Of a stretch of DNA of 64,000 nt, positions 21,786 to 64,000 are shown in pieces (positions within the stretch are counted from its first letter, which is position 1; the number at the start of each line of letters is the position of its first letter). A program made the translations under genes and the position numbers. The notes under the pieces are model-generated. The model worked only from the letters and a program-made list of their open reading frames with translations, was not told where the DNA came from and made no database searches. This DNA is from a bacterium (GTDB lineage: Bacteria; Patescibacteriota; Patescibacteriia; Buchananbacterales; GWA2-38-13): positions 5,108 to 69,107 of the forward strand of contig JAUSGZ010000017.1 in NCBI GenBank assembly GCA_030648715.1, read 5' to 3'.

Positions 21786-21801
21786 ACGCGAGCAAAAAAC
21801 T

Positions 21802-42405: not shown

Positions 42406-42465
42406 CCAGTCGCGCGGGAGCACGCCCCGAATTCCAGATTCTCGTTGCGGGAGGTGGATTTTTTT

Positions 42466-46295: not shown

Positions 46296-46805
46296 CTATA
46301 ATTTCAATAATCGCGAGATCTGATCCAGGACCGGCTCATCCTCCCGCCGCAAGTCCTCCGACAAATAATCCAAGAGCGCGTGCCGTGCCGTCACCGGATT
46401 CTGCGAGCCCAGTGGCAGAGGGAGGTACGGTTTGAACGGGTTTCGAAACTCCAGGTACAAATTCTTCACCTCGGGCGGCTGATAGATGATCCAAAAGCGT
46501 TTCAGTTCCTGGTAGGAATAAAAGGTCCGGCCCGCGGCCACCCCGTTGTCGGTGATGGCAAAGCTCATGGTCTTGGACGGCTGGCGGCGCATCAGCCCAT
46601 AGGTTAAGCCGAACAGTACCAGTAACCCGGAAAAAAGGAAATCCCCCATCCATACTCCGTAGGCGATCAGCAGGACGGCAACGACACCGGCGATCACATA
46701 CCAGCGATGGCTGCGCGGCTGTTGGGTTCCATCGTCGCATTGCCACTGGACAATCACCCGACCGATGCCGGGAGGCAAGCCTGGTGAAGTTATCGGTTCT
46801 GCCAT
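46296..46805 (-). CDS. Hypothetical small membrane protein (2 TM)
   Basis: WYVIAGVVAVLLIAYGVWMGDFLFSGLLVLFGLTYGL. No recognisable family. Confidence 0.45.
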   Translation of the reverse strand: MAEPITSPGLPPGIGRVIVQWQCDDGTQQPRSHRWYVIAGVVAVLLIAYGVWMGDFLFSGLLVLFGLTYGLMRRQPSKTMSFAITDNGVAAGRTFYSYQELKRFWIIYQPPEVKNLYLEFRNPFKPYLPLPLGSQNPVTARHALLDYLSEDLRREDEPVLDQISRLLKL

Positions 46806-46973
46806 ACACGAAAATTCTTACACTATTTCTTCCGGCTGCGGCTCGGCATGCAGGGCGGGGAAGATGTCCGGAACTTTGAACCGAAAATCTCTTTAAAATT
46901 CAACGATCTTAATAAAACAATACCAAAATTGAGAGCTATATACAAAGAGCATCCAGAGTGATTTGAAGTGCCT

Positions 46974-47936
46974 TCATCTACTTATTAGAAATTCTAACAA
47001 GCCTTCATGTAAATGTTTCTGACCGCCCCAAACCACAGTATTGTAACCCTCCAAAAATTCTGCAGGATTTTCTTCTCGAAAAGTAATAGAACGAACTTTT
47101 TCGGGCAGCGCTTCGCTCATGTGCCTATCAGTCCCGCCTCTTATAACTGAAAATTTATCTCCCCAAACTTCTATATTATCTGGCTTTAGCCTTTCTTTTG
47201 CTAAACCAACGGCTCTCAAAACTTCTTCGTTACCTAAAATATATTTAATAGCTGTAGTTTTTGATACCCCTTTAATAGCCAAATCGATAGCAAATACTCC
47301 TGCTAACCTCGGAGAAATTGGTAAATTATTTTCTTGCAATAGCTGATCAATTCGCTCAACAATGGGAACTCTCAAATCCAAATTGCCGTGAGTATTCGGA
47401 ACGCTGATTTCCAATGCCTTTTCTTGCTCTGGCGTTAAATCGTAACCATTTATCACCTCTAAAGTTATTTGTGGGCCCCTGTCTTCCAGCATGATCGCTA
47501 ACGGATTATTCCCAACCTTAGATTTAAACTCTGTTAGCGGCGTTGCTGGGTAAACCTGTAACTTAAATTCCTTTATTATTTGATTTACTATATCTCGCCA
47601 TCTCTTTTTTTGATTCTCAGTTAAAGCGTTTTCATACAGGCTGTAAAAAGGCTTGGCGTTTACATAACCCGATTCATCAAACCCCCAAACTTCAGCTCCA
47701 CTGCAATGACCAACTAATACTTTCTTTCTTAACTTTGATTTAACATGGTCAGTAATGCGCCATTGAACACTTTTAATGCTCTGTCCCGTAATAAAAAATA
47801 CTACAGTCCCTTGTTCCAAAATCTTTTCCAACTCTCTACATATTTCAGGAGTGGCGGCAGTATATAGATCTGCAACTGTTTCATCGACATCAGATAAAAT
47901 CAACCTTAAACTGTTATTCCATTTGATAGTTGCCAT
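46974..47936 (-). CDS. HAD-superfamily hydrolase-like protein (DxDET motif), encoded by an atypically low-GC gene
   Basis: LILSDVDETVADL matches the motif-I DxDxT of HAD phosphatases (class-B acid-phosphatase-like DIDET). The gene GC is visibly far below the ~64% flanks and there is an AT-rich intergenic region at 46810..46975. Confidence 0.45.
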   Translation of the reverse strand: MATIKWNNSLRLILSDVDETVADLYTAATPEICRELEKILEQGTVVFFITGQSIKSVQWRITDHVKSKLRKKVLVGHCSGAEVWGFDESGYVNAKPFYSLYENALTENQKKRWRDIVNQIIKEFKLQVYPATPLTEFKSKVGNNPLAIMLEDRGPQITLEVINGYDLTPEQEKALEISVPNTHGNLDLRVPIVERIDQLLQENNLPISPRLAGVFAIDLAIKGVSKTTAIKYILGNEEVLRAVGLAKERLKPDNIEVWGDKFSVIRGGTDRHMSEALPEKVRSITFREENPAEFLEGYNTVVWGGQKHLHEGLLEFLISR

Positions 47937-48088
47937 GTGTTGGTTCAAAGTTGGACATCTGGCCGTGGCGGTGGGGGTGAGATTCTCTGCCTTCGGGAAA
48001 CCACCCGTAGGGTGGGTACCCACAGTACCCTTGCTGGTTCAGCAGTTTTTCCGCCTGCGGCGGATCCGCCGTAATATTTATTTTAGAA

Positions 48089-48867: not shown

Positions 48868-49608
48868 TTAGCCGTGCGCCAGGGCCAGGGCAACCACCTC
48901 GTGGGACCCCGCATCCCGCAACGCTTGGGCGCAGGCGCGCATCGTGCTGGCGGTGGTCACCACGTCGTCCACCAGCAGGACTCGGCGCGGCGCCATACCG
49001 CTGACCGAGAACGCTCCCCTGACGTTTTTCAGCCGCGTTCGCTGCGGAAGTCCGACCTGCGGCCGGGTCGCCCGCACGCGGAACAGGACATCCTCACGCA
49101 AAGGCCAGCTGAAATGTTGCGCCACGGGGACGGCGAGCAAGGCCGCCTGCTGGTAGCCGCGCGCCAGGAGTCGACGCCGGTGCAGGGGTACGGGAATGAC
49201 CGCGTCAAATGCTTTTGACCATGCCCCGGCATAACGAAAGTGTTCAAGATGTGCAATGAGCAGTTCCGCCAACGGATCTGCTAAGGCTTGCACCCCGGTG
49301 TACTTCAACGACTCCACAGCCCTCGCCAGGGGGTTCTGCCGATACGGACAAGCGGCAAACAGCTGGGTCAGGGGGCAGGCAGCAACGCACGTAAGGCACG
49401 GACGGCCATCCGTGGACGGCCGCAAACAGCCGGGACAAAACCCGCTCCCACACTGCCGCAGGCCTGACAAACAGGCGGCGCACAGCCAGCTGCCCCGCTC
49501 CGCGCACCCGACGCAATGGGATGGGAACAGCGTTTCCAGAATACGCGCACGGACCTTGGCGGCCCACCTCGATTGCAACACAAATTTTTCTTCCCGAATT
49601 TCGGCCAA
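48868..49608 (-). CDS. comFC: ComF family protein (ComFC/GntX phosphoribosyltransferase-like competence protein)
   Basis: N-terminal 4-Cys Zn motif (CVGCAERGSWLCAAC...CPGC) and a C-terminal PRTase fold with RVLLVDDVVTTASTMRACAQALRDAG. Confidence 0.8.
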   Translation of the reverse strand: MAEIREEKFVLQSRWAAKVRARILETLFPSHCVGCAERGSWLCAACLSGLRQCGSGFCPGCLRPSTDGRPCLTCVAACPLTQLFAACPYRQNPLARAVESLKYTGVQALADPLAELLIAHLEHFRYAGAWSKAFDAVIPVPLHRRRLLARGYQQAALLAVPVAQHFSWPLREDVLFRVRATRPQVGLPQRTRLKNVRGAFSVSGMAPRRVLLVDDVVTTASTMRACAQALRDAGSHEVVALALAHG

Positions 49609-49631: not shown

Positions 49632-50204
49632 TCACTGCCATGAGGCCCCGTCGACGCGCCAACCTGCGGTATTCTTTACCAGGGTCACCGTCAATTTCTG
49701 GTAAAACTGCTGCCGTCCCCCACCGGTCCGGGTTTCGGAGCGCTGCGTCTGCACCACGACCTGCGCCTCCGTTTCCTCGCTGTTCAGAGCAACGATCTCG
49801 GCCGACAATACTTTGGTCGTAACGCCGTAGAAGCCGTCGCCCAGAAGTACCTGCTGCTGGGCCGAACGCGCGGTAACGGCGAATTGCTCGGTCATCAGCG
49901 GTTGGAGCTGCTGCAAATTCGTGCTCCCGCCGTGCGTGGAAAAACTGCCGAAACGCTCCGCGAAGGTCTTGGCCAGCGCCTCGAGCGTGGCCTGGGTTTT
50001 TGGCTCTTTGGTCACCGGCGGCTCCACGGGTTGGGTCACGGTTCCCCCAACGGGCGGCAGCGTCGTACCGGCCCCAGGCAAGGGTGACACCTGCTCGGGG
50101 CCCAATGGACGCGCCGGACGCGGAGCACGCGCGATGAGCACCAGCGCAAGCACCACCACGAGCGCCAATACGAGAATAACGATTATTTTTGTCCGTTTGG
50201 TCAT
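49632..50204 (-). CDS. Membrane-anchored hypothetical protein, last gene of the VirB4 operon before comFC (possible VirB8-like/accessory component)
   Basis: N-terminal TM KIIVILVLALVVVLALVLIA, Pro-rich linker, ~120-aa globular C-terminal domain. ATGA-type overlap with the VirB4-like stop. Confidence 0.45.
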   Translation of the reverse strand: MTKRTKIIVILVLALVVVLALVLIARAPRPARPLGPEQVSPLPGAGTTLPPVGGTVTQPVEPPVTKEPKTQATLEALAKTFAERFGSFSTHGGSTNLQQLQPLMTEQFAVTARSAQQQVLLGDGFYGVTTKVLSAEIVALNSEETEAQVVVQTQRSETRTGGGRQQFYQKLTVTLVKNTAGWRVDGASWQ

Positions 50205-52168
50205 ACGTTTTCACGTTGATGAGCGGCTGTTTTCCGCTCCTTGGGAGCGCCGGTCTGGTCTTCCATCGACTGCGCGAAGTCCTTTTTGGCCTGCTCGATC
50301 TCCAGCAGCTGCCGCGGGTCCGACGTGATGAGCTGGTCTTCGGCGTACGAAGCGACGACCTTGATGGCCGCGTGCTTGTCACCGGCGAAAAAGATCCCCT
50401 CCCCGACGCCGCACTCCAGCAGCAGGTACTTTTCGCCGTCGGTCAGAACGAATGTTTTGGCGATGAGGTCGATGGATGCGGATGACTGGCGCATCAGCAC
50501 CTGGATGGAACTGTTGGTGACGATCGCCGACCCATACGGCGAAAGCAGGAAATCATTGACGTCCTGGGTGATGGTGGTCACCCCCAGGTAGTACTTGCGG
50601 CAGCGCTTCACGAGGGCATAGATGAACTTTGCCGAGTCCTCATATTGCATCAGCCACCAGGCTTCATCGATGACCATGATGCGGCGCTTCAGCTCGGAGC
50701 GCACGACGTTCCAGATGTAATTGATGATGGTGTAAATCGCGATCGGCCGCAGCTCGTCTTCGAGGTCCCGAACGGAAAAGACCACCAGCTGGTTGTGCAC
50801 GTCGATGTTGGTGGGGCTGTTGAACAAACCGGAGAACGTTCCCTGCGTGTACTTCTGCAGCCGAATGACCAGGTCGCCCGACCCCTCCATACCTTCCAGC
50901 ACCTCTTGGAAATCCTGCATGATCGGTGCTTCCACCGTGGCGAGGTCGGAGTTGGCCGTGATGTCTTTCTTGGCGTAGGTTTCCAGCAGCGCGCGGTCGA
51001 TGAGCGAGTCTTCCTGCGGAGAGAAACCGAGCTTACCCGAATCACCGATAGGCTTGCCCAGCATGATGCGCAGCAGCCCCTTGAGCGTGATGACCGCGCC
51101 GCGGATGATGTCGCCGGCGCGCTGGTCGCCGACGGGCCGCGGGAGGTCGAACGGATTGAGCTTGCTCTCCGAGGACAAAGAAATATTGATGTAGGTGCCG
51201 CCGACCGCGTCGCACAGATGCTGGTACTCGCGCTCGGGGTCGATAATGATGACGTCGGTGCCCAGCATCAGGGACCGCAGAACCTCCAGTTTGATGGTGT
51301 AACTCTTGCCGGCGCCGGAGGTGGCGAACACCACCATGTTCGCGTTCTGCAGGCTAAAACGGTCGAACAGGATCAGGCTGTTGTTGTGGCGGTTGATGCC
51401 ATACAGGACGCCATCATCCGAGGTCAGCTCCGACGAAATGAACGGGAATGAGCTGGCGATGGGCGACGAGTTCATGTTGAATGCGATCATCAGCATATCC
51501 TCACCCAACGGCATCGTCGAGGTGAACCCCTGCTCGGCCTGATAGAGTACCTTGCGCGAGTACACCAGCTTGCTGCCGAACAACGCCTCCACGTCGTCGG
51601 TCAGTCGCTCCAAAATCTTTCGGTCCTCGGCGTAGAGCGTCACGTACAGCCCAAATTGGAAGAAATGCTCGATCCCCTGGGTCAAGTCATCCCGCAGCTG
51701 CTCGATGTCGCGCAATGCCGTCTCGCGGATGGGGTCGCGGGGAGCGCCTTTCTCGCGGTCGGCGAGGATCTGCGCCTCAAGGTTACCGACCCGCTTCTTC
51801 AGCTGCTTGAGAATGACATCCGACCGCACGGGGTAGAAATACATTGAGATATCGAGCGGCAGGTTGAGGTTGATGATGGGCGCGAACCATCCGACCGTGA
51901 TGTACCTGGGGTAGCCGATGACGAACAGCGTCCGCACGAACAGGTCTCCCAGCATCAGGAAGGACGGCTTGACCTGGAAAGCCGCCGGCGCGATCAGGTC
52001 CCGGATGGAAATGAGGCCTTCGCGGTAGACGCGCTCTTCCTCGAGGATGACCTTCTCCTCGGTGATCTGCCGCTGCTCCAGCCGCTTGCGCTCCTCGGCC
52101 GACAGTGTCGGGGTCACGGGCTTCCCCGCCTGTTTTTCCTCGCGCTCGATTTGCTGTGGTTTGAACAT
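50201..52168 (-). CDS. virB4: VirB4/TrbE/ConE-family type IV secretion ATPase
   Basis: Walker A VVFATSGAGKSYTIK, Walker B VIIIDPEREY, C-terminal VMIDEAWWLM. The overall VirB4 (CagE_TrbE_VirB / AAA_10) architecture is present, 655 aa. Confidence 0.85.
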   Translation of the reverse strand: MFKPQQIEREEKQAGKPVTPTLSAEERKRLEQRQITEEKVILEEERVYREGLISIRDLIAPAAFQVKPSFLMLGDLFVRTLFVIGYPRYITVGWFAPIINLNLPLDISMYFYPVRSDVILKQLKKRVGNLEAQILADREKGAPRDPIRETALRDIEQLRDDLTQGIEHFFQFGLYVTLYAEDRKILERLTDDVEALFGSKLVYSRKVLYQAEQGFTSTMPLGEDMLMIAFNMNSSPIASSFPFISSELTSDDGVLYGINRHNNSLILFDRFSLQNANMVVFATSGAGKSYTIKLEVLRSLMLGTDVIIIDPEREYQHLCDAVGGTYINISLSSESKLNPFDLPRPVGDQRAGDIIRGAVITLKGLLRIMLGKPIGDSGKLGFSPQEDSLIDRALLETYAKKDITANSDLATVEAPIMQDFQEVLEGMEGSGDLVIRLQKYTQGTFSGLFNSPTNIDVHNQLVVFSVRDLEDELRPIAIYTIINYIWNVVRSELKRRIMVIDEAWWLMQYEDSAKFIYALVKRCRKYYLGVTTITQDVNDFLLSPYGSAIVTNSSIQVLMRQSSASIDLIAKTFVLTDGEKYLLLECGVGEGIFFAGDKHAAIKVVASYAEDQLITSDPRQLLEIEQAKKDFAQSMEDQTGAPKERKTAAHQRENV

Positions 52169-52272: not shown

Positions 52273-52995
52273 CTAGGGCTCGACCTGCAGTTGGTTAAGA
52301 TCGGCGAGCTTCTGCCGCTCGGATGCGCCGGGGTTGTAGGTGTTGTAGTACAGCTCAATCAGCCCCTGGGTGTCCAAGAGCGCCGCCTTCAACCCGATGC
52401 TGCCGAGCGACGCCACGACATGATCGACCCGCTGCATCAAGTCGCGCCGCCGCTGCAGGAACCGTTCGCGCGACAGCCGCACCGACCCCGCCGCCTTAAA
52501 GACCTCCAGCAGGCGCCTAAACCACCCCTTCTGCTTGTCGGACAGGGGATTGTGCGGCACCACAACGTAGAAGCGCTTGGTCATGATCTCGCCCAGCTCC
52601 ACCAGTTCGGTGACGTAGTTGCGGTACTCGGCAATCTGGAGTTTCAGCAGTTCATTGGTCTGCTCCTTTTCTTTCTGTTCCAGGCGCGTCAAGTAGCCGC
52701 TGATGTTGAGCTTACGCGACTGGATCAGGATCTGGAGCGGAAAATCGATGGCATTCAGGAAATTCACGTACGCCGCGATGATCGCGTTTTGCTCCTCCTC
52801 CGACTTGAGGGAAAAATTGATGCTGGATACCAGCAGCACCGCCCGCAGGGTACCGTCTTTGAGCACCGCGCAGTCCTCTTTGATCTCGGTGATCGGCAGA
52901 TGCCGCTGCGTTGACGGAGTTTTTGCCGCCGAACGCGCCGGCACTCCGGTGGAAGCGGCGCCCTTTGCGGTTGCGGTTTTTTTCAATTTAGCCAT
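52273..52995 (-). CDS. Hypothetical T4SS-associated protein (possibly VirB4 N-terminal-like accessory domain encoded as separate ORF)
   Basis: ITEIKEDCAVLKDGTLRAVLLVSSINFSLKSEEEQNAIIAAYVNFLNAIDFPLQILIQSRKLNI. It sits immediately upstream of the VirB4 ATPase. The start was trimmed to MAKLKK (ATG at 52993..52995) to avoid overlap. Confidence 0.45.
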   Translation of the reverse strand: MAKLKKTATAKGAASTGVPARSAAKTPSTQRHLPITEIKEDCAVLKDGTLRAVLLVSSINFSLKSEEEQNAIIAAYVNFLNAIDFPLQILIQSRKLNISGYLTRLEQKEKEQTNELLKLQIAEYRNYVTELVELGEIMTKRFYVVVPHNPLSDKQKGWFRRLLEVFKAAGSVRLSRERFLQRRRDLMQRVDHVVASLGSIGLKAALLDTQGLIELYYNTYNPGASERQKLADLNQLQVEP

Positions 52996-53008
52996 AGCGA
53001 AGTTCAAC

Positions 53009-53446
53009 TCAATCCTGGGCGGTTTCGCCCTCGTAGACGCCACCGGTATCCACGATCAAGGATAGCTCCACGAGCCGCGAGCTCCCCACCAGGGGCTTGT
53101 GGCGGGGCGGAACGATGGGTTTGGTCGTGATCTCCTTCATGGCCAGCTGGAGCTCGGCCGGCGTCAGCCGCTTGTCCCAGAGCGTGAGGCGCGGCCGCTT
53201 CATGGTTTGGATAAAATTGAGGATGAAATAATGGACCGGACGGCCGTTGATCTTGATGAACGCGAACACGATCGTCAACACCGCGATCACCAGCAGCCAG
53301 AACAGGAACAGGGTGAAGTCGGAGATCTTGTACGCCAGGAACACCATCCCGCCGGACACCAGTAAAATAATGAACTGGCGCACCGTGATGGGGCCGATCA
53401 CCTTGTCTTCCACATCGAGGAATTGCGGAACCACGAACTGCTGCAT
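53009..53446 (-). CDS. Small 2-TM membrane protein, PrgI/VirB3-like first gene of the T4SS-like sub-operon
   Basis: 145 aa with two hydrophobic helices (FIILLVSGGMVFLAYKI; LFLFWLLVIAVLTIVFAFI). It is positioned directly before the VirB4 genes. Confidence 0.5.
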   Translation of the reverse strand: MQQFVVPQFLDVEDKVIGPITVRQFIILLVSGGMVFLAYKISDFTLFLFWLLVIAVLTIVFAFIKINGRPVHYFILNFIQTMKRPRLTLWDKRLTPAELQLAMKEITTKPIVPPRHKPLVGSSRLVELSLIVDTGGVYEGETAQD

Positions 53447-53461: not shown

Positions 53462-53547
53462 ATTTGACCCTTAACCATTGACCGTGATTCGATTGTTCAG
53501 GTCAAATGTCAATTGTCAAAGGTTAATTGTTAACGATTAAAACCTCA
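53462..53547. promoter_or_regulatory. Third copy of the composite heptad element (4 forward nTTnACC heptads + 6 GGTCAAA-type heptads) between the Pro-rich gene and the PrgI-like gene
   Basis: TTTAACA TTTGACC CTTAACC ATTGACC (53462..53489), then GGTCAAA TGTCAAT TGTCAAA GGTTAAT TGTTAAC GATTAAA (53506..53547). Confidence 0.5.
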
Positions 53548-54721
53548 ACGTCCGATTAAAATCAGCAATCGCCTCGAACTCGGCCACGCTCAGGATCGAC
53601 GTTCCGGGGGTTGCATTTGAGCCCAGCATTTCACTGATCGGCCGCTTCTCCGCCATCGCGCGACCAGCGGTCGCCGTGTAAAGGTTGAATACTTCGCAGG
53701 ACCGCCAGGCGGCGATGGCGGCCGCTTTGTGAGCAAAGGATTGCTGTTCAAGCAGGACGATCTTTTCGCGTAAACGATCCGTCGCGCGGCGCGGGTCGGC
53801 ATCCAAACGGCGAAAGTCTTGCAGAGTCATCTGGCCGATCTCTTCCAGGGGGCCAACCAGCTGCGGCCGGTACCGTACTGCCGGCACTTCCTCTGCCATG
53901 GGCTCTGGGGACGGCGTGAACGGTTCCGTTGCTCGAGCTACGGGCGGCAGCATTGCTGGCGGCGCGAGAGGTGGAACAGCGGGCACTGGTTGCGGGAACC
54001 TCGTCGGCACCGGTAATGATGGCGGCTCCAGCGGTACCGCCGACGGGACCGGCGAAACAGCGGCGGAGGGGCGGCTCATCAACGGAGGACGCGTCGGGGG
54101 ACGGACTGGCGGGAGTGGCGGCACCGTCGGAGGAAGAGCGGCGGGCGGTAACGGCTGCAGGGACATGCGCCGCGGCGGCGCGATCGGCGCGGCAGGTACG
54201 GGTGCGGAAGGCGTTAGCGGCGCAACCTCGCTGACGTTGGCCTGCAGCTGGGCGACGGCTTGGTCCTGCTGCCGGCGGCTGGCTTCGCTGAAACGGCGGT
54301 AGTGTCTTTCGATGACCACGGACGACGTTTCGGCCTGCTCGGCCGTGAACCCGAGCCCGCCGACCTTCAGTGGCCGCGCCATTGCCTCGCGGGTTTCAAT
54401 GGCATCCCGCACATCCTTGAACCGCGCCAAGATATGGGTACGCAGACGTTTTTGGAGTACCGGGTCGGGCAACGGCAACGCCAACTCCTTGATGACTTGT
54501 TCAACGAACGATTCCACGGGGGACGATTGGGAGGGAAGCGCCGCAGGCACGGACGCAGGAAGTAACGGCACGGCCGTCGGTACGGCGCTACGCCACGGCT
54601 CCACGATACCGCCGCGCAACACCTTCAGCTGCCCATCGGCGTCCTTAAAGAGTACCTCCTCGCTGCCGGTAAACGGATTGTACACAGCCTCTGGCATGGG
54701 TAACAGGTTCACGGCAACCAC
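53537..54721 (-). CDS. Hypothetical proline-rich protein
   Basis: 394 aa with a central ~130-aa segment of PxxP/PPLPP repeats and a folded C-terminal region. Translationally coupled (13-nt overlap) to the upstream gene. Confidence 0.5.
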   Translation of the reverse strand: MVAVNLLPMPEAVYNPFTGSEEVLFKDADGQLKVLRGGIVEPWRSAVPTAVPLLPASVPAALPSQSSPVESFVEQVIKELALPLPDPVLQKRLRTHILARFKDVRDAIETREAMARPLKVGGLGFTAEQAETSSVVIERHYRRFSEASRRQQDQAVAQLQANVSEVAPLTPSAPVPAAPIAPPRRMSLQPLPPAALPPTVPPLPPVRPPTRPPLMSRPSAAVSPVPSAVPLEPPSLPVPTRFPQPVPAVPPLAPPAMLPPVARATEPFTPSPEPMAEEVPAVRYRPQLVGPLEEIGQMTLQDFRRLDADPRRATDRLREKIVLLEQQSFAHKAAAIAAWRSCEVFNLYTATAGRAMAEKRPISEMLGSNATPGTSILSVAEFEAIADFNRTLRF

Positions 54722-56001
54722 TTGAAGGTCTTTTCCCGGACATCAAAGTACGCCAATTTTTCATACTGATGCCGCCCGCGCTGCTTAAAAATATTGGATA
54801 GCTGCGCACCGACGCGCGCGGCATCATGCTCGGGCACATCCAAACGCTCCTGTAGCACATATTGTATAAACAACTGCACCGACTGTCTACTCAACGGCTG
54901 CCGCACGAGCGTGTCCGCCGCCGCTTGGCCGTACAACGATGGCCACACCGACCGCAGGTGCTGCTGCAACGCCTGGTCATTGGCGAGTAACCGCTCCAGC
55001 TGGTCGTTCTCCGCCAACAAGCGCATCGTCGCGACCGTGCGAGGCACGTTCCGCGACTGCACCGCCGCGAAGAACTCGGCGGCCAATTTTTTCTGGTCAT
55101 TACCGGCCTTGGCGCGGATGCCAGACACGGCCTCAGTGACCGCCCGCTGGTCGGCATCGCCGCCGCGGTAGGCAGCGACGATATGCCCCAACGCGGGGGC
55201 AGTCACCGCTGCGGAGGCGAAATCCGTGATCGCTTTACCGCCAACCCGTTCCACCACCGGTTCCTGGACGGTGCGCTCTTCCACGATGGGCGCCTTGTGC
55301 GGGAAGCGCAACAGGTCGTAGGTCTCCAGCAGTTTGGTGAGAATTTCACGGTCGGCGTTGTTCAGCCGCTTGACGTTGGCATCCCGCTGCAAAAAATGGG
55401 CGCGTTCCACCGGTCCGCGTTCCTGGTTCAGGGGGAACGAACCGTTGTAGGCCCGCAGCCAATTCTGCACCGTCGGGTCTAAACGCTCCGGGTTCTCCGG
55501 CACGGTGAGCGGCGTTTCTCCGATCGTTTCCAAATTCAACCCGATAACCCGTAAAATGGTGTTGCTTGCGTTCACCGCCAATTCGGGTTCGCCATAACTG
55601 ATGAGCGCTGCTTGCAGCCCAGCGGCCAGATTCAAGCCCGCTCGCAAGGCCATGACGGTGCTGGCTTGGAATACCCCCTCAACATCGCGAATCCGCAGTA
55701 AGGCAACTCCGACAACCTTCAAAATGGCGATGATCTGCTGGAGTCGTTCTTCATCGGTAGCATCCAGAAGCGTTCGGTCCGAGCTGGAAGAAAGCAGCCC
55801 CTGCAGCCGTCGCGCCAGTTGCAGCGCCAATCCCCATTCATGCGCTTCATCCAGATAGAGCGCAGTGGCATAGAGCCGTTCGAACGCCCTGGGCTGCTTC
55901 AACCAATGCACATCAACAAATGCGAACTCTTCCTCGGTCAAACCCTGGTCAAGGTCGGGTTTCCGGGTCGCGAGAAAGTGATATGTCAGATGTTCGGCCA
56001 T
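54709..56001 (-). CDS. Hypothetical cytoplasmic protein (430 aa) translationally coupled to the giant TrbL-like gene
   Basis: No TM segments and no recognisable family. The start lies 5 nt after the stop of the giant gene. Confidence 0.5.
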   Translation of the reverse strand: MAEHLTYHFLATRKPDLDQGLTEEEFAFVDVHWLKQPRAFERLYATALYLDEAHEWGLALQLARRLQGLLSSSSDRTLLDATDEERLQQIIAILKVVGVALLRIRDVEGVFQASTVMALRAGLNLAAGLQAALISYGEPELAVNASNTILRVIGLNLETIGETPLTVPENPERLDPTVQNWLRAYNGSFPLNQERGPVERAHFLQRDANVKRLNNADREILTKLLETYDLLRFPHKAPIVEERTVQEPVVERVGGKAITDFASAAVTAPALGHIVAAYRGGDADQRAVTEAVSGIRAKAGNDQKKLAAEFFAAVQSRNVPRTVATMRLLAENDQLERLLANDQALQQHLRSVWPSLYGQAAADTLVRQPLSRQSVQLFIQYVLQERLDVPEHDAARVGAQLSNIFKQRGRHQYEKLAYFDVREKTFKWLP

Positions 56002-56006
56002 ACTGC

Positions 56007-59000
56007 TTAAATGGTTGGTCGGCCTTTCGGCGGTTCGCCGGATAAGGATTCTGGAGAAATTGCAGGGATTTCTGGTACGCCGGTTGACCCTTCCTTGCTC
56101 TGCGCCATCTCCTGCAAAGACTTATTGATCTGGAAAAGAAGGTCTGCAAGCTCGTCGGCTTGTTCCCTTGTCACCCCAGCCCCGGCTTCGGCAGATACCT
56201 GCGCCTCGCCGATACGCGCCACACCATCACGCAAATTCTTGCCCAAAACATCAAATTTCTTGCTTGCGTCTTTATCGGTCATGCCAGCCTTTTCCTCCTG
56301 TTCGGATAACGTTGTCGCAAGCGACTGTACGCTGCCAGAAACCTGCGCCAGCGCTTCGCTCATGGTCTTGAGCATCTTGTTCAGGGTGGCGAGGTCGGCA
56401 GTCGGAAACGCTTTTACCACCTCCGCCTGCCGCTCAACTTGTTCTGCGGCGTGCGCTGCTATCTTTTGGGACGTCACGGTCGCAGCCGGAGGCGTCGGTG
56501 AATCCGCTGGTTGTACGGGCGCGGGGGAAGACGGATGTGCAGCTACTGGGGATGGCTCTTGGACGGGTTGGGACGCTCGAGGCGATGTGGACTTACGAGC
56601 CGCACGCCTTGCCTCCACTTCCTTGGCCAAGTTATCGGTATGTGATGTACCCCCGCGATCAATACCGCGGCCAACCGCCGAAAGCTGGTTACCGAAAAGA
56701 TTTCGGGCAACCGCGGCTGCCTTCTGGACATCCTCAGGGGTCGCGCCGTGCATCACCACGTTATCAAATCTATATTTCGCCCGTTGCCCGGTTGGAGCAA
56801 CTTTCACTTGGCCGTTATAGCCTGCCTTCGCCAAAGCCGCCATAAATTGATTCAAGCGTTCCGGCGTAAGATCCCGCAGCGTGTCTTTGAACGTCAAATA
56901 ACCTTTGTGGGTTTCTCCCGTTGATTCTTTGCCTTTGCCAACCTGGTAATTCAGCCAATCCGACTCTGCTCCGATAGCGCGGACATTCTCAACTTGGGTC
57001 TTCCCACTCCCTACTTCATTCCAATTGTTAGTTTGTTTTTTACCGAACTCCTTCAATGATTCAAGCAACCCGGGAGTTGAAGCCATCTCTTTGGCGATAT
57101 CAGACTCTTGCAAGTGGCGCAGTTCCGCCTTTCGCGTCAATAGATTGTAGACATCCGCGCCAGTTACCTCTAAACGATTTTGGGTCAGATACTCCGCAAA
57201 TTCATCCTGGGACATGGCGGCAATCTCATGTTGAGATGGCGAATGCAGCGCAGACGGCGCGGAACCTAGTCCTGCAGTTCCTGTGGGGGGTTGCGCCGGC
57301 CCGGCAGCTGTTTTGGCAGAAATCTTTGGCGGCGGAACAGCCCGTACCGAGGGCGGCTCAATGCCCTCAGCCGCGGCTTCGGCCGCACGACCAACATTTT
57401 CTTCCGCCGCAGTGGCGGTGGCCTCCACCTGTTCAACCAACCCGACCAGACCCGCGGAGAAATCCTGAATTTCTCCCATTCTTTGTTCGATCTGCCCCAT
57501 CTCTTCGGTTCGTTGAGCGATCGCCTGCTGCGCCTTGCGCAGGGCGGCAACATTACCCGTTGACCGGGCCTTCTGGGCAGCCGCCCCCTGCTGCTGCAGC
57601 GCAGCCCCTGCCGCAATACGACGCTTGTCCAACTTCTCGTACTCTTTGCTCATGGCTGGGATTTCCTGCTCCCCGATCGTTTTCGCTTCTTGCAAACGAC
57701 GCTGAGCGATCACCAACTCTTCTTGCGCGAGCACGAGATCGCTCACATCGGCAGCGTTCTTCAGCACCAAATCATCCCACTCGCCGATCTCCTTATCGAC
57801 ACCCTTGATCTGGCCACCCACCGTATTGAAACGGTCTTGGGCGGCCTTCACCGCATCATCAGCGCGCTTGCGTTCCGTACCCGGCGCGGCCTGGGCCTGC
57901 CGCTCTTGCTGCTTCCGCAGGTCTTTCTCCGCGGCTTGATGCTGCTTGACCAACCCTGTCCGCTTCTCGGCGAGCTCGGCATAGTTGAAATCACGCTTCA
58001 CTTTTGCGACATTGAGCTCCTGGTCCGCATCTTTCAAGCCGCTACCCTTGACTTTGGGGGCTAGACCGAGACGGCGACGCTTCACGGTGTAATCCAGCTG
58101 GTCGCGAATGATCTGCGCTCGCTGCGCGCGGTCGTGCGCCGCCCGAGCGCCCGCCGCATCCCCTTGGGTCGCCTTTTCTTCCGCCTCCTTGTTATTCGCT
58201 TCCAATTCGGACTGGGCATGGCTAAGTTGCTGGGCCAGTTCATCCTTACTCAATGTGCCAGCCGCGTCCCGAACAGCGGCAGCGAACGTTTCCAGAGACT
58301 GCACGGATTCCTCAACCCGGCGCCGGTAATCGGCTTGCGCGCCTTCCAGCGCCTGGGAGTCCCTGGCGACGACGTCCTGCTGTTCAGTAACGGCATCGGT
58401 GGCGGCGGTAACCTCCTGCTGCTTGGCACGGGCCAACGTTTGGGCCTCCTCCTGGGCCTGGTAGTTCCCCTCTTCGACTGCCCGGCGGGCCTGCGCGTTC
58501 AATTCCGCGAGCTCAAGCTGCCGCTGGTCGCGCACCTTGACGCGATTTCCCAATTCCTGCTGGCTAGCCCGCACGATCTGTTCCTTGGCGCCGATCTCCT
58601 GCTTGGCACCCGCCACCTCCTCACGGTTTCCCTGGCGCGCCGTCAAAAACTTCTCTTCCACGGCAGTCAGCGACTGCTGGCCCTTGCTGACCGGTACGGG
58701 CTTAGGTTGCAACGCCTGCACCGCGCGCTCCTTGGCCTGTACCTCCTGCTGCTGTTTTGCGATGCGCTGTTGCGCGGTACGCAGATCCCGTTCCGCGGCC
58801 TGGGCCAGGCGTTCCTGCCTCCCGGCTTCTTCCTGGCTGCCTTGGTCTGCGGCCCGCTTCCTCAAGCGGTTATGCACCTGGGCGCGACGGGCAAGCTCAT
58901 CGCGATTCTGTTCCAATTCCGTCAATTTGCCGCGGCTTTCCGACAGCTCCTGCTGCGCGCGCGCCGCTACATTCTCGGGCTTTGCCGCCTCGCGGCGCTG

Positions 59001-62000
59001 CTGGGTTTGACTGACGCGCTCCTGCAACGTCGTCATGAGCTCGGGGAACGACTGGTCCGCCTGCCGCGCGTTGTCCAGCGCCGCCTCCTTGCCCGCCACG
59101 TCGCGACGCTTGGCGCCAATGGTCTGATCAAGCTGCGCCAGCTGCTGAGCGGACTGGTCGGCTTGCTGGCGAGCTGCGGCGATCTCCTGGGGCGTCAGGC
59201 CAACACCTGCCTGCCGCACCGCCGCCTGGTTGATCTGCACGGCTTCGCCCAACGCCTGCTGGTCAGAACGATGCTGCATTAGCGTACGCTTGGACTCCTG
59301 CAGGCGAAGGTACTCGGCGTCGTACGCCTGACGTTTGACCCCGACGTCCTGGCGCGCCGTCTCGTCGCGTTGAACGGCTGCCGCAACACGCGTCTCCTGC
59401 GCGGCCTTGGCCGAGCTCTGCGTCTCGATCTGCTGGTTCAGCTGCGCCAATGGTGCGGCGATCTTTCCCTCTGCAGCAGCTGCCAACGCCTGCTCACGGG
59501 TCGCTTCCTCAAGCGCCTGCTGTTCGGCCAAAGCGTTGCCACTCGCCCTCGCGGCGTTCAAACGCTGGCTGGCGGCGTTCTGGTTGGTGAGATGTTGGTC
59601 GCGTTCGCGAGTCAAGACATCGCGATTTCCCATCAACGCCGTCAACTGGGTTTGTATCGCCTGCAAAGCCGATCTCTCTTGCCCCGCTGCCGCCGCCGCT
59701 TCGGGCAGCTCCACCTTAGCGTTCTGCAGCTCGATGCGGGCATGCTCGACATTTTCCTCCTGGGTCTGCACCACCTGCTCCTGTTCGTTGACGCGTTGAT
59801 CGGCCGCACCCAACTGCCCCGCGCTGCGGTTATACGCTTCCTGCGCCGCGCTCACGTCACGCGCCTCGGCATACCGGGCAGCCTGCTGGCGCACCAACGT
59901 CAAGGACTTCAGCTTGCTGCGGTCGCCTTCTAACGCTGCCAACTCACCGCGCTCTCCCTCCAACGCCGATCTCGACTCCTCGGTTGCCGCCCCCCACTGG
60001 GGACTGACCTCGGCCAGGACTTTTTCTGCGATCCCGTCCAGCTCCGCGTCCGACAGTTGGTCAAGGGATCTTTGCAATGTCGCTGCGAACGCTTGGCTGC
60101 TGGGCCCCGCGCTCGCGGCTGCCTGCTGGCGCAGGGCTTCGGCCTGCGTCAGGGCCTGCTGGCGCTGGTCTACCACGCCCCGCTGGGTCGCGACCTGCGT
60201 ATTGAGGACATTCAACTGCGGCTGCACCTTCGCCTGGGAATCGCGCGCCAAATCGCGCTCCGTCATGGCTTCGCGGTCATTCGCAGCAAAACCCAATTTG
60301 TCGCCGCGCGCTTTTGCCTGCTCCGCCCGCTGGCGTGCCGCCTGGCCCTTGGCGATATGCGCATCCGTTTCCCGCAACAATTCCCCGCGCTGGCCTTCCA
60401 GCTGGGTAAGCTTTTGCTGTTCCGCGGTAAGGGAGGCGTTCGCTTGCTGTACCTGCGCTTCGGCCCGGGTAACCTCCTGGGCGCGCGAACCTTGCTGGCC
60501 CGCTGCGTCCGTCAAAATTTTCCCGATCTGCACATCAGGCTTTTGCTGCCGCTGACGGTGAATTTCTTCGATCTCTTCGTTGGTGATGGCGCGCTCTGCC
60601 TTCTCCTGCGGGGCAAGCGGTTCGTCCGGCTTGAGTTTGCGGCCGCGGTAGCGCGCACCCTTGGCAACCTTTCCGGTCTTGTCCGTCACTTCCAGCTCAT
60701 CAAGGAAATTCCGCGTCTGTTCGGACAACGTGTGGGCGTTATCGTTCACGCCCAACGCGTGCGCCAGATATTCTTCCGGCGTTTCCTGGTCGAACAATTG
60801 CTGCTGCTCCTCGGACAACGTGCCCCGGAACGTCTGACGCTGCTCGTCGTTCAGCTGATTAGCAAGAGTATGGCCGTACTCGTGGCGACGGGCGGTGAAA
60901 CGACTGCCGAACGCGGCGTTGTTATGCAAGGACAGTGTGGAAGCGGAATCCAGCCGCTTTTTGAATTCGGCCTGGCGCTGCTGGGCACTGACCTCTCCAG
61001 CCGCCAGCGAGGAAACATCCTTGTCCTGGGACATCTGCCGCAGCGCCTCACCCTGCTGGGCGCCCAGCACCGCCGCATCCCTATAGTGGTAGCCCGCCAC
61101 CGCGCCCGAAGCATCGCGAACCTCCTCAACGCGCCCAGCGGCGTTGCCCTCCTTGAACTCAGCCGCCGCCCATTGCCCGACCACGCGGTCGGCATATTGT
61201 TTGTCCGCGTCCGCCGGTTTCAATGTTTGGTATTTCGCGGCGTAACCGTCGCGCAATTCCTCATCCGTGACGGCGTCGGGCTGCTTGCCCAACCCTTGGG
61301 CAACCTCCTGTCGGAACGCGGCTCCTTTGCCGACCAACTCTTTCCCGTAATCCTCCGCCAAATTCTTGGCGACGATATCTTTGTTCGCCTTACGCTCTGC
61401 GGTTGACTCATCGTAGTTGACGGCAGTCATTCCCGGAACGACGCCATACCGCTGACCGGCTTCGGCGGACTCGAAGTTCACACCGATACCGGCCACCGCC
61501 TTTCGTCCATATTCCGCCAATGGGCCTTCGGCGTAGCCCTCGGCTGGCCGCCGCTCGATGGAGGCAACACCCCGCATCGCATCCAGGCTCTCGCTCCGTT
61601 TTTCCTCCACCTGCTCATGGCGGATAATTGCCGACGTAGCATACAACGTCCCGGCGCGTATTTCTTCCTGGTGCAGGCGCCCATACGCTTCATTGGCCTC
61701 GGACTCCGACATTCCGGCAGCCAGCAGCTGCTGGTACGCTTCCTGCGAAGCGGCCTGGACCTCGGGGCTGTAGGTCTCCATCAACGGGCGTCCGCCCTTC
61801 GGGGCGTACCCACCATGCAGCCGCCATTCTTCGGGAATCTCCTCATGTTGCGACGCCGCTGGTCTTCCATTGATATCCAAAGCCCCGGGTGTCCCATGCT
61901 GTAAATACGTCTCCCATTCTGGGCCGGTTCGGCTATTGACGTAGGTTTCCAACTCGGGCGAAAGCGGCCCCGCACGAGCGGCGGCATAACTTGTAGGCTC

Positions 62001-64000
62001 GTAGGTCTTTCCTGATTTTGTAAACGCTTCCTCTGCATACTTATCTAATTCAATCCCAGGGGTGCCATCGTAGTTCCGAACCCCGGCTTTATTCATAATT
62101 CTTTCAACCGCTACGGCTTGTTCCGGAGAAATATTCTTTTGTCCAAAAAGGTTGGCTACCCCATGGTGGCCCTTCGCCTTGAATTGGTCGTAGACCGACC
62201 TAATATCCAGCGCCATGGAACCGGTTTTTTGGTCAAAACGGAAGCCGGCGAACTCCGCGGCGCGCGGCTGCAGGCCGTGTCCTCGTTGCGCCACCACGCG
62301 ACCGAAGAATACGGTATCGAATTTCGCCGACGCGATCTTACCCAAACGGTCCATCCGGCCCATGCGAGAATGGACGACCTTTCCGCCCGACAGCACGTCC
62401 TCGAACGGCTGCGCGGTGGGATGGAATTTGAAAAAGGCCTTGCCTTCGGTCTTGGCAACAAAATTTTCCATTTTTCCGCGGCCGATGATCGTACCGAACT
62501 CTTCGCCGAACTTCTCCTCGAGTTTCCGCAAGACATTCGCTTGGATCCGTGGATTATTGTCGATGGTCGGATGCTTTTTGTACTCCACTTCAAGTTCTTC
62601 CCGGGCGCTGTCTTCGGACACCAGCACGTTCTCCACGTCGCCGGTGGGGCGTCCTTTGCTGTCAAGTACGGGGCGCGTGAACCCGTAGCCAAATCCGCGC
62701 AGGAGCGCGCTCTCCTCTGATTGGTCCTTCAGCAACACGCCCAGGTCGCCCGCAGACCGTTTGCCGAAAGTGCCGCCGATGCGCTTCATCAAATGTTCGC
62801 GGAAACTGGTTTGTGAGTGTTCTTGGTCTCCGTACTCATCGGGGTACCGCTGCGCCATGTAGCCCATGTAGTCGTCGGTGTGGTTGCCCTTGTTCAGCGC
62901 CAGGGCGGCCGCGAACGAGCGCACCTGGTTTTTGTTCTTGATGGCAAGGTCAAATTCGCTGGCTTTTTCCGTTTCCGTCAGGTTATTCAGTTCGGACATT
63001 TCCTTGCTGACGAGCGAACGGAATGCCTTGTCACCTTCCTTGGTTTTTTCACCTTCCAGCCGAGGAATAGCTCCGACGGTTACGCCCGCGATCTTGACCC
63101 GCTGCCAACGCAGGCGTGGTTTGGTCACGCTGTTGAGAAAGTCGGCCATGTCGCCAACGGATTTACCGAACGACTGCTGCTCCGCCATCTGTCGCGAACG
63201 CGCCGTGCCTTGCCGGCGAACGGTCGGGCTTAATAATCCCGCAATCGTTGAATACCACCGCTTGTCTTGCACGCGCCGACCGAGCCATCGGTCGGTCAAG
63301 CGGCCCGCGCCGTAGGTGCCTTCCCGCGCCAGCCAACCGGCGCCGCGCAACGGCGAGGTACCCGCACGGATGCCGGCGCGGGCCATGCGCTGGCCGTACG
63401 ACCGCAAACTGCCCATGACCGAGCCGGCGAACTGCGAACCGGCAACGCCGGCCTTCTGGGCGGCCACCAGCCCGCCCAGCATCAGGCAGGTCATCACCAA
63501 AAACTTCAACACGTTCTCTTTCTCTCCGGCCTTGCCGATACCCACCCGCAATGACGGTTCCAATTGGGCGACGCCCCCTTCGCTCAAGGCGGTGGTTGGC
63601 GCACGCGTGGTATCCAGCGTGGTCGTGAAGGCCTGTTCCGAGGTCGCGATCGCCAGCCAGAAGAAGAACATCAGGATGGGCCCGACGGTCACGTACTTGG
63701 AGAAGGTCTGCCACCACTCGCGGCTGTAGCGCTCCCCCTGCGGGAAGGCCGACAGCACGTAGGCGAGCGGCGAAAGGATGATCAGTATCCACAGCGCAAC
63801 GATACGCAACGCAAACACCACGAGGTACGCCAGGATGACGGAAAACGCGATGATGAGCATGACGGTTGCGAGCAGCAGCGACAGGAAGAGGTAGAACAAG
63901 GCGATATTCTCCTCGCCGGACCCCGGCAGGAACGCGTCCTGGCTGACCGCGAACAACTCGGCGAGCCCGAACTTGGCGTAGATGTTGCCGGCGGTCACCT
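56007..64000 (-). CDS. Giant (>2663 aa, 5' end outside window) TrbL/VirB6-like polytopic membrane protein with >1000-aa Q/A/E/R-rich coiled coil and C-terminal globular/Pro-rich regions
   Basis: The visible N-terminal part has 5-6 TM helices with a TrbL-like pattern (LRIVALWILIILSPLAYVLSAFPQGERYSREWWQTFSKYVTVGPILMFFFWLAI). Heptad-pattern coiled coil is encoded across ~57.6-60.8 kb. The C-terminus is Pro/Ser-rich. The ORF is open to the window edge. Confidence 0.6.
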   Translation of the reverse strand, partial: VTAGNIYAKFGLAELFAVSQDAFLPGSGEENIALFYLFLSLLLATVMLIIAFSVILAYLVVFALRIVALWILIILSPLAYVLSAFPQGERYSREWWQTFSKYVTVGPILMFFFWLAIATSEQAFTTTLDTTRAPTTALSEGGVAQLEPSLRVGIGKAGEKENVLKFLVMTCLMLGGLVAAQKAGVAGSQFAGSVMGSLRSYGQRMARAGIRAGTSPLRGAGWLAREGTYGAGRLTDRWLGRRVQDKRWYSTIAGLLSPTVRRQGTARSRQMAEQQSFGKSVGDMADFLNSVTKPRLRWQRVKIAGVTVGAIPRLEGEKTKEGDKAFRSLVSKEMSELNNLTETEKASEFDLAIKNKNQVRSFAAALALNKGNHTDDYMGYMAQRYPDEYGDQEHSQTSFREHLMKRIGGTFGKRSAGDLGVLLKDQSEESALLRGFGYGFTRPVLDSKGRPTGDVENVLVSEDSAREELEVEYKKHPTIDNNPRIQANVLRKLEEKFGEEFGTIIGRGKMENFVAKTEGKAFFKFHPTAQPFEDVLSGGKVVHSRMGRMDRLGKIASAKFDTVFFGRVVAQRGHGLQPRAAEFAGFRFDQKTGSMALDIRSVYDQFKAKGHHGVANLFGQKNISPEQAVAVERIMNKAGVRNYDGTPGIELDKYAEEAFTKSGKTYEPTSYAAARAGPLSPELETYVNSRTGPEWETYLQHGTPGALDINGRPAASQHEEIPEEWRLHGGYAPKGGRPLMETYSPEVQAASQEAYQQLLAAGMSESEANEAYGRLHQEEIRAGTLYATSAIIRHEQVEEKRSESLDAMRGVASIERRPAEGYAEGPLAEYGRKAVAGIGVNFESAEAGQRYGVVPGMTAVNYDESTAERKANKDIVAKNLAEDYGKELVGKGAAFRQEVAQGLGKQPDAVTDEELRDGYAAKYQTLKPADADKQYADRVVGQWAAAEFKEGNAAGRVEEVRDASGAVAGYHYRDAAVLGAQQGEALRQMSQDKDVSSLAAGEVSAQQRQAEFKKRLDSASTLSLHNNAAFGSRFTARRHEYGHTLANQLNDEQRQTFRGTLSEEQQQLFDQETPEEYLAHALGVNDNAHTLSEQTRNFLDELEVTDKTGKVAKGARYRGRKLKPDEPLAPQEKAERAITNEEIEEIHRQRQQKPDVQIGKILTDAAGQQGSRAQEVTRAEAQVQQANASLTAEQQKLTQLEGQRGELLRETDAHIAKGQAARQRAEQAKARGDKLGFAANDREAMTERDLARDSQAKVQPQLNVLNTQVATQRGVVDQRQQALTQAEALRQQAAASAGPSSQAFAATLQRSLDQLSDAELDGIAEKVLAEVSPQWGAATEESRSALEGERGELAALEGDRSKLKSLTLVRQQAARYAEARDVSAAQEAYNRSAGQLGAADQRVNEQEQVVQTQEENVEHARIELQNAKVELPEAAAAAGQERSALQAIQTQLTALMGNRDVLTRERDQHLTNQNAASQRLNAARASGNALAEQQALEEATREQALAAAAEGKIAAPLAQLNQQIETQSSAKAAQETRVAAAVQRDETARQDVGVKRQAYDAEYLRLQESKRTLMQHRSDQQALGEAVQINQAAVRQAGVGLTPQEIAAARQQADQSAQQLAQLDQTIGAKRRDVAGKEAALDNARQADQSFPELMTTLQERVSQTQQRREAAKPENVAARAQQELSESRGKLTELEQNRDELARRAQVHNRLRKRAADQGSQEEAGRQERLAQAAERDLRTAQQRIAKQQQEVQAKERAVQALQPKPVPVSKGQQSLTAVEEKFLTARQGNREEVAGAKQEIGAKEQIVRASQQELGNRVKVRDQRQLELAELNAQARRAVEEGNYQAQEEAQTLARAKQQEVTAATDAVTEQQDVVARDSQALEGAQADYRRRVEESVQSLETFAAAVRDAAGTLSKDELAQQLSHAQSELEANNKEAEEKATQGDAAGARAAHDRAQRAQIIRDQLDYTVKRRRLGLAPKVKGSGLKDADQELNVAKVKRDFNYAELAEKRTGLVKQHQAAEKDLRKQQERQAQAAPGTERKRADDAVKAAQDRFNTVGGQIKGVDKEIGEWDDLVLKNAADVSDLVLAQEELVIAQRRLQEAKTIGEQEIPAMSKEYEKLDKRRIAAGAALQQQGAAAQKARSTGNVAALRKAQQAIAQRTEEMGQIEQRMGEIQDFSAGLVGLVEQVEATATAAEENVGRAAEAAAEGIEPPSVRAVPPPKISAKTAAGPAQPPTGTAGLGSAPSALHSPSQHEIAAMSQDEFAEYLTQNRLEVTGADVYNLLTRKAELRHLQESDIAKEMASTPGLLESLKEFGKKQTNNWNEVGSGKTQVENVRAIGAESDWLNYQVGKGKESTGETHKGYLTFKDTLRDLTPERLNQFMAALAKAGYNGQVKVAPTGQRAKYRFDNVVMHGATPEDVQKAAAVARNLFGNQLSAVGRGIDRGGTSHTDNLAKEVEARRAARKSTSPRASQPVQEPSPVAAHPSSPAPVQPADSPTPPAATVTSQKIAAHAAEQVERQAEVVKAFPTADLATLNKMLKTMSEALAQVSGSVQSLATTLSEQEEKAGMTDKDASKKFDVLGKNLRDGVARIGEAQVSAEAGAGVTREQADELADLLFQINKSLQEMAQSKEGSTGVPEIPAISPESLSGEPPKGRPTI

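Follow-up and report, generated by a model that had tools for sequence, protein, structure and literature searches.

The stretch of DNA analysed here (the window, 64,000 nucleotides in length) corresponds to positions 5,108 to 69,107 of contig JAUSGZ010000017.1 (GenBank assembly GCA_030648715.1), from a member of the Patescibacteriota (Buchananbacterales, GWA2-38-13) closely related to 'Parcubacteria group bacterium Gr01-1014_31'. The last 8 kb of the window encode, on the minus strand, a giant protein that we identify with high confidence, on the basis of homology and gene context, as a VirB6-type subunit of the chromosomal monoderm-type type IV secretion system (T4SS) of Patescibacteria (the candidate phyla radiation, or CPR). 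An earlier note on this DNA had described a minus-strand open reading frame (ORF) running from position 56007 to the window end without a start and exceeding 2,663 amino acids (aa), and we indeed found a single ORF of 2,663 codons, with its stop codon at 56007-56009, that is still open at the window edge; the GTG at position 63998 is only the end of the window and not a genuine start. Since its relatives, including an orthologue described below, extend approximately 165-171 residues further at their N-terminus and align with the window protein only from there onward, some 170 N-terminal codons should be cut off by the window edge and the full protein should measure approximately 2,830 aa (aa ranges given below for the giant are those of the window ORF). 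Downstream on the same strand, the giant gene is followed by two genes of unassigned function and by those for PrgI/VirB3, TrsD, and VirB4 (Table 1), and it heads a PrgI/VirB3-TrsD-VirB4 operon. A published description of the chromosomal T4SS of monoderm type in Patescibacteria gives the same genes in the same order (PMC12102498). The apparent splitting of VirB4 into two adjacent ORFs is not a frameshift but the known TrsD plus VirB4 arrangement (PMC12102498).

Table 1. Coordinates of the giant VirB6-like gene, its regions and the genes that follow it in the operon
Feature	Position in the window	Strand	Remarks
Giant VirB6-like ORF	56007..63998	-	2,663 codons + stop; ~170 5' codons should be missing
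Hydrophobic VirB6/TrbL-like core, aa 1-185	63444..63998	-	Matches the family's last four hydrophobic helices; carries the RIVALWILIILSPLAY...WW motif
Arg-rich, Gly/Ala-rich juxtamembrane segment, aa 186-275	63174..63443	-	17 R/K
Region A, aa 276-735	61794..63173	-	Globular, matches no known family
Region B, aa 736-1150	60549..61793	-	Alpha/beta domain with HExxH + Glu1076; putative gluzincin-type metallopeptidase
HEYGH motif, aa 1039-1043	60870..60884	-	Within region B
Segmented coiled-coil region, aa 1151-2200 (~1,050 aa)	57399..60548	-	Unique sequence; 87% identical to the orthologue, zero indels
Pro/Ala-rich linker 1, aa 2201-2256	57231..57398	-	
Inserted HopA1/LanY/OspF-like (phospho-Ser/Thr-lyase fold) domain, aa 2257-2467	56598..57230	-	GC 0.515; absent in the orthologue
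Pro/Ser-rich linker 2, aa 2468-2503	56490..56597	-	
C-terminal helical tail, aa 2504-2663	56010..56489	-	Motif ...ADLLFQINKSL...; 53% identical to the orthologue
430-aa protein, function unassigned, next in operon	54709..56001	-	88% identical to the counterpart next to the orthologue
394-aa Pro-rich protein, function unassigned	53537..54721	-	78% identical to the counterpart next to the orthologue
PrgI/VirB3-like small membrane protein	53009..53446	-	PF12666, E 6.6e-9
TrsD-like protein, homologue of the VirB4 N-terminal domain	52273..53043	-	PMC12102498
VirB4-family ATPase	50201..52168	-	NF045971, E 1.3e-99, exceeds its cut-off

A metagenomic origin, a low-complexity appearance and the interruption of the ORF by the window edge would all be compatible with an assembly artefact, a chimera or a decaying pseudogene, and a collapse of repeats in the coiled-coil region was the specific artefact that the earlier note had feared. 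We found no trace of it. Tandem Repeats Finder detected no repeats in the DNA of the giant ORF, where the longest direct repeat measures 31 nucleotides, and the frame is unbroken across 8 kb. An orthologue of 2,589 aa with the same architecture, encoded in an independent metagenome-assembled genome (MAG) of the GTDB collection (contig VMFR01000004.1 of 'Parcubacteria group bacterium Gr01-1014_31', our locus L002), is collinear with residues 1-2219 of the giant at 89.6% identity and with zero gaps or indels, and a Logan contig of 5,950 bp (SRR13727527) is 100% identical to window positions 54491-60440. The assembly artefact, including repeat collapse, is therefore excluded and the gene is genuine. 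Comparison of coiled-coil codons with those of the orthologue also revealed more synonymous-only differences (22.7%) than amino acid differences (12.8%), which indicates that this region evolves under purifying selection and makes the pseudogene explanation, like the chimera, extremely improbable. The giant form is so far confined to these two closely related Parcubacteria MAGs.

The identification as VirB6 rests on the N-terminal part of the protein. A hydropathy scan revealed three strong hydrophobic segments within aa 46-180 and none later; in a family whose full-length members possess eight hydrophobic segments, their counterparts are the four hydrophobic helices that come last. The first ~200 residues match Patescibacteria proteins of 800-1,100 aa with 28-49% identity (E 1e-38 to 2e-7), and a pattern scan of GTDB genomes yielded 471 confirmed relatives, of which 80 were kept, nearly all of them from Patescibacteria MAGs. 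Many MAG records carrying a Patescibacteria-type VirB6 gene are titled 'uncultured Gammaproteobacteria' (CAY*/CAZ* accessions; L003, L006, L010, L014, and others), titles that look taxonomically wrong. PF04610 (TrbL/VirB6) is the only Pfam family that recurs among the relatives, at subthreshold level in 12 of 66 members (best E 2.4e-6, scores up to ~23 bits), while the window protein itself matches NCBIfam models of membrane proteins from integrative conjugative elements (ICEs) and conjugal transfer systems (NF045848, E 2.4e-5; Mbov_0396 family, E 2.4e-3). A profile-profile comparison (hhalign) of the CPR family with seven proteobacterial MPF_T VirB6 sequences, including TrwI of plasmid R388, gave an E-value of 3.5e-4 over 93 columns (probability 37%) and paired the motif SPLA with GPLF together with a conserved Trp: P76 and W94/W95, invariant in our family alignment A1, are paired with two likewise invariant residues of TrwI, P181 and W199. 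A profile search of Protein Data Bank (PDB) sequences with the hydrophobic core produced no meaningful matches. The VirB6 hallmark, namely at least five hydrophobic helices in which the central helical pair is followed by a conserved Pro and Trp, is thus present, and the homology of its core makes the protein a member of the VirB6-like family of Patescibacteria T4SS, with a weak but consistent similarity to TrbL/VirB6. Because the recurrence of PF04610, the NCBIfam matches, the profile alignment and the PrgI/VirB3, TrsD and VirB4 genes encoded with it all point in the same direction, the VirB6/TrbL-like nature that the earlier note had read from the helix pattern, and its placement in a Patescibacteria-type T4SS locus, appear well founded.

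The giant is an outlier in its family, with approximately three times the usual length: the 59 complete family ORFs have a median of ~940 aa, and the longest after the orthologue reaches 1,855 aa. The hydrophilic tail of the family normally spans 500-700 aa; here it spans ~2,450 aa (~2,480 hydrophilic residues past the last hydrophobic helix). A VirB6 core followed by a large hydrophilic C-proximal domain is the architecture of the 'extended VirB6' proteins, a recognised subtype; what their extended domains do is acknowledged to be an open question (PMC12857230). The qualification 'extraordinarily large' given to this protein in the earlier note holds within its own family but not for VirB6 proteins in general, since VirB6-4 of Anaplasma phagocytophilum attains 4,322 and 9,935 aa by means of tandem repeats (PMC7648143).

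Scans of the whole protein against Pfam, PHROGs and NCBIfam detected no domain in the tail, and when the tails of 38 members of the family were compared with Pfam, nothing besides TrbL was retrieved. Between the membrane part and the coiled coil lie ~950 aa of non-coiled sequence (aa ~186-1150) that is rare: among 1.84 billion representative proteins, aa ~215-1150 have nine matches, six of which fit long VirB6-like proteins by length and alignment position, the other three being fragments or proteins without the N-terminal hydrophobic domain. Region A is common only to a few long VirB6-like members (P0018, P0021, P0022, and P0024; ~1,030-1,440 aa), and region B is common to members of at least 1,285 aa, its HExxH-containing part occurring only in the long subfamily. 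Ten sequences that share 19-37% identity all possess H1039, E1040, H1043, and E1076. An HExxH motif with a downstream Glu ligand is the gluzincin signature, and both elements are found here, so that we propose, as a hypothesis based on this motif, that region B is a putative gluzincin-type metallopeptidase. Its AlphaFold model is of moderate quality (mean predicted local distance difference test score, pLDDT, 66.6). A profile search of PDB sequences with the HExxH region gave no meaningful matches, and a comparison with ArdC, a zincin-like protein of plasmid R388, revealed no similarity.

The following ~1,050 residues are rich in A, Q, E, R, and L and contain at most three Pro per 100 aa. We evaluated them with a home-made heptad score against composition-matched shuffles (not with COILS or MARCOIL), and in 11 of the 21 blocks of 50 aa in aa 1151-2200 at least 50% of the 42-aa windows score higher than the 95th percentile obtained with the shuffles, as compared with almost no blocks in aa 301-1150. 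The coiled coil of ~3 kb announced by the earlier note is therefore present, but it neither follows the membrane part directly, from which it is separated by the ~950 aa just described, nor runs uninterrupted, as its heptad signal is segmented. Its length is strictly conserved between the giant and its orthologue. Fully extended, 1,050 residues would span ~155 nm by our own estimate (0.148 nm per residue), comparable to the size of cultivated Saccharibacteria cells, given as 200-300 nm in a passage of PMC7427843.

Past the coiled coil, the globular region that the earlier note had recognised by the sequence ...LNQFMAALAKAGYNGQVKVAPTG... is indeed present (aa ~2257-2467), set between Pro-rich linkers. 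It shares its fold with the HopA1/LanY/OspF superfamily of phospho-Ser/Thr lyases. The 90%-identical orthologue has no counterpart of residues 2220-2503, and the lower GC content of the insert and of its third codon positions (GC3), 0.515 and 0.54 as compared with 0.64 and 0.74 in the coiled coil, points to a recent acquisition of this domain. Among 5.8 billion proteins it has only seven relatives: six stand-alone proteins of 288-412 aa, all without N-terminal signal peptide, and one sequence of 229 aa without start Met. One of the stand-alone relatives is encoded on a contig with neighbouring housekeeping genes for ribosomal proteins and EF-G/EF-Tu. The stand-alone proteins (L082 10001-11239, or P0029; P0016; P0026-P0028; and P0030) share the N-terminal motif GRAxRxDETPxEY..ERExSW and constitute a small family of proteins with the HopA1 fold that lacks annotation. 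A profile search of PDB sequences with the insert gave no meaningful matches, and alignment of its family profile with SpvC by hhalign gave a probability of 0.1%. Two lysines of the insert, K109 (KGYLTF) and K143 (GQVKV), are invariant and, in a manual alignment without side-chain superposition, lie 34 residues apart versus 32 for K104 and K136 of SpvC, which act respectively as carbonyl-activating and base lysines (PMC9486802); we infer that the two pairs may correspond to each other.

The Pro/Ser-rich stretch that the earlier note had taken for the tail of the protein does exist (aa 2468-2503), but it is a linker and not the end, being followed by 160 aa of helical sequence. The latter carries the motif ADLLFQINKSL, recognised by eye and with a regular expression, and other long members have similar endings (LLFKINQSI, LLFKIWQAI, LLFNINQNL, and others); a jackhmmer search with the last 160 aa retrieved only the orthologue. 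With respect to L002, the last ~440 aa (56010-57398, aa 2201-2663) constitute a swapped or diverged cassette, with a GC3 of 0.47-0.48 in the linkers and only 53% identity in the C-terminal tail, in contrast with ~90% for the 2,219 aa upstream and with the 88% and 78% of the two downstream genes. These two conserved neighbours also speak against a polymorphic toxin with its immunity gene, as no swapped immunity gene is evident downstream.

The side of the membrane on which this tail resides was assessed mainly from charges. In 66 relatives, the loops assigned to the inside contain 21.7 Lys and Arg versus 7.0 in those assigned to the outside, and the first 60 tail residues have a net charge of +7.9, in contrast with -3.5 for the preceding variable loop. 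In the giant, the last hydrophobic helix is followed by a stretch of 90 residues that contains 17 Arg or Lys. A lyase acting on phospho-proteins makes sense only inside a cell, and the classical topology of VirB6 places the C-terminus in the cytoplasm, as cited in a passage of PMC7648143. Given this charge balance, the absence of any later hydrophobic segment, the lack of signal peptides in the lyase-like relatives and the classical topology, we favour a tail synthesised on the cytoplasmic side, which we judge to be probable if readings in which the tail is subsequently delivered are counted as cytoplasmic synthesis. The same charges, the uninterrupted hydrophilicity and the signal-peptide-free relatives go against the proposal of the earlier note that the coiled coil forms a fibre reaching a partner cell.

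We propose, with about even confidence, that the giant is a VirB6-family subunit of a chromosomal MPF_FATA-like T4SS whose modular cytoplasmic tail serves as a scaffold at the channel entrance. By homology and gene context, its hydrophobic N-terminal domain would form the membrane translocon together with PrgI/VirB3, TrsD, and VirB4. The tail would have grown from 500-700 aa to ~2,450 aa by the addition of modules, namely the juxtamembrane segment rich in Arg, the rare globular regions A and B (the latter with HExxH...E), the coiled coil and the recently acquired lyase-fold domain, to which the conserved C-terminal tail of the family is added. Located on the cytoplasmic side, it might oligomerise through its coiled coil under the channel and hold the putative protease and the lyase-like module at the entrance. 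Because Patescibacteria T4SS mostly lack a coupling protein (PMC12102498), such a scaffold could replace it or feed substrates to the channel. Several observations weigh against this interpretation. The topology derives from charge counts over hand-defined helices, and loops L2 and L3 have the 'wrong' charge. In the cryo-electron microscopy structure of the R388 T4SS, only the N-proximal helices a1-a2 of VirB6 lie in the membrane and a5-a7 are in the periplasmic stalk (PMC9259494); as a5-a7 are the part aligned with the core of the giant, the start of the tail would then be outside (the last 70 residues of R388 VirB6 are unresolved; PMC9259494). The C-terminal tails of Anaplasma VirB6-3 and VirB6-4 are accessible to trypsin and their repeats are surface-exposed (PMC7648143). 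The similarity to VirB6 is itself limited: the profile alignment with MPF_T VirB6 has the low probability given above, and all curated VirB6/TrbL models remain below cut-off on the window protein (PF04610, 11.8 bits, E 0.2, versus a cut-off of 25.9). The eight members of the insert family match neither PF17914 nor the SpvC sequence at E <=1, and in the manual alignment a Tyr occupies the position of the catalytic His106 of SpvC. Finally, the activity, oligomeric state and partners of the protein are all predicted here.

The R388 and Anaplasma data would fit an extracellular fibre or adhesin, with the VirB6 core as a stalk beyond the membrane and the tail as a surface coiled-coil fibre of up to ~150 nm contacting the host cell. 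The strict length conservation of the coiled coil fits this idea, as do the episymbiotic lifestyle of Patescibacteria, in which the T4SS is essential for growth on hosts (PMC12102498), and the C-terminal domain of F-type TraG, said in a passage of PMC7648143 to act in mating-pair formation and in entry exclusion via the inner membrane protein TraS. We nevertheless consider it unlikely, since the strongly positive juxtamembrane segment favours a C-terminus inside, no export signal or additional transmembrane segment occurs across the 2,450 aa, a phospho-Ser/Thr-lyase-fold domain has no obvious substrate at the cell surface, the relatives of that domain lack signal peptides, and segmented heptads do not imply a single rigid stalk. 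A cytoplasmic tail could alternatively be a tethered effector that delivers itself, being cut free, possibly by its own HExxH module, and pushed through the T4SS into the host, where the lyase-like domain would irreversibly dephosphorylate phospho-proteins. HopA1 and OspF/SpvC, whose fold the insert shares, are secreted effectors; the swapped or diverged C-terminal ~440 aa on a conserved trunk recall polymorphic effectors; long members have the conserved C-terminal motif, and several tails, not clearly that of the giant, end in basic residues; and, for Rickettsiales, it has been proposed that extended VirB6 tails are released into target cells (PMC7648143). On the other hand, neither a cleavage site nor a protease activity is evident in the sequence, no immunity-like gene has been swapped downstream, Tyr stands in place of the catalytic His of SpvC, Patescibacteria T4SS have no defined secretion signal, and the orthologue keeps the whole trunk without the lyase-like domain, so that the trunk must have a role of its own; we regard this delivery as rather improbable. 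More doubtful still, but the most interesting given that the C-terminal part is swapped as a module, that the insert has an effector-type fold and that the tail motif is conserved, is that a channel subunit of an episymbiont's essential T4SS carries its own cargo, a swappable, horizontally acquired phospho-Ser/Thr-lyase effector plus a zinc protease on a 150-nm coiled-coil tether, either released and injected into the host cell or threaded through the channel while attached. If true, the protein could be called an 'evolved VirB6', by analogy with the evolved VgrG and PAAR proteins of type VI secretion. The cytoplasmic scaffold remains the interpretation that we prefer.

The surroundings of the T4SS genes deserve a brief description. 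Directly after the VirB4 gene, positions 49632-50204 (minus strand) encode a protein of 190 aa that has a single transmembrane helix at its N-terminus and a small domain at its C-terminus, and whose position and size would fit a VirB8-like component although it matches no family. A ComFC-like protein (double zinc ribbon plus phosphoribosyltransferase; 48868-49608, minus strand) follows directly after the T4SS genes and, with RecG (43831-45933) and RadA (42445-43818) nearby, the T4SS locus lies among DNA uptake and repair genes. Positions 46000-48000 form a low-GC island (0.47 versus 0.61 for the window) with an ORF (46974-48023, minus strand; GC3 0.34) for a HAD-IIB-type hydrolase; this DNA, which separates the T4SS/ComFC block from RecG, is possibly foreign. 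On the other side, in L002 (5-8491, plus strand), an ORF of at least 2,828 aa with a weak CBM_4_9 match, open at the start of that locus, and a 358-aa ORF stand directly upstream of the giant VirB6 gene; by synteny, this region would lie just past window position 64000, and the T4SS locus may be flanked by two giant genes. A second giant ORF of the window (27839-36427, minus strand; 2,862 aa) contains right-handed beta-helix/NosD repeats (PF13229, E 3e-20) and adjoins type IV pilus genes for PilM (24562-25704) and a PilB-type ATPase (20055-21992).

The T4SS is one of the few machines kept by nearly all Patescibacteria and is essential for growth on the host, as reported for Ca. Southlakia epibionticum (Quinonero-Coronel et al. 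2025, PMC12102498). Its substrate and mode of action in these bacteria are not known, and it usually has neither coupling protein nor relaxase (PMC12102498, PMC12857230). In the extension of the giant, an HExxH site, a domain with a phospho-lyase fold and a coiled coil of conserved length can be recognised; these testable modules, together with a natural comparator that lacks one of them, provide handles on the function of the extension and on the side of the membrane that it occupies.

Among known systems, the best curated-model matches of the giant's hydrophobic core are Mycoplasma ICE membrane proteins (MMCAP2_0566/Mbov_0396), which likewise adjoin VirB4 (Mbov_0397 there); however, the scores are far under the cut-offs (23.8 versus 90 bits) and those proteins have ~300 aa and no tail. 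With F-type and SXT TraG, whose C-terminal domain serves in mating-pair stabilisation and entry exclusion, it shares a two-part architecture and the idea of a C-terminal domain contacting a partner cell, but no similarity to TraG was found beyond the hydrophobic core, the tail of the giant has no Pfam match, and its locus contains neither an entry-exclusion partner nor a relaxase. The insert differs from HopA1, the LanY enzymes (LxmY, CaoY) and OspF-SpvC (PMC9486802) by its lack of detectable sequence similarity, by the Tyr in place of His106 and by being fused into a T4SS channel protein, whereas the known members are free effectors or enzymes of pathways for peptides that are made by ribosomes and modified post-translationally (RiPPs). 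In architecture the giant also resembles the extended VirB6 proteins of Rickettsiales, especially Anaplasma VirB6-4, where a VirB6 core likewise continues into a giant hydrophilic extension at the C-terminus, different from strain to strain (PMC7648143). That extension consists of tandem repeats, reported to be surface-exposed, in a diderm, while the one described here is repeat-free and combines a coiled coil with enzyme-like domains in a monoderm-type cell. With the VirB6-like proteins of other Patescibacteria, finally, the giant shares a homologous core, its T4SS partners and the succession of a hydrophobic domain and a hydrophilic tail, but it differs from them by its length, its 1,050-aa coiled coil and its inserted lyase-fold domain.

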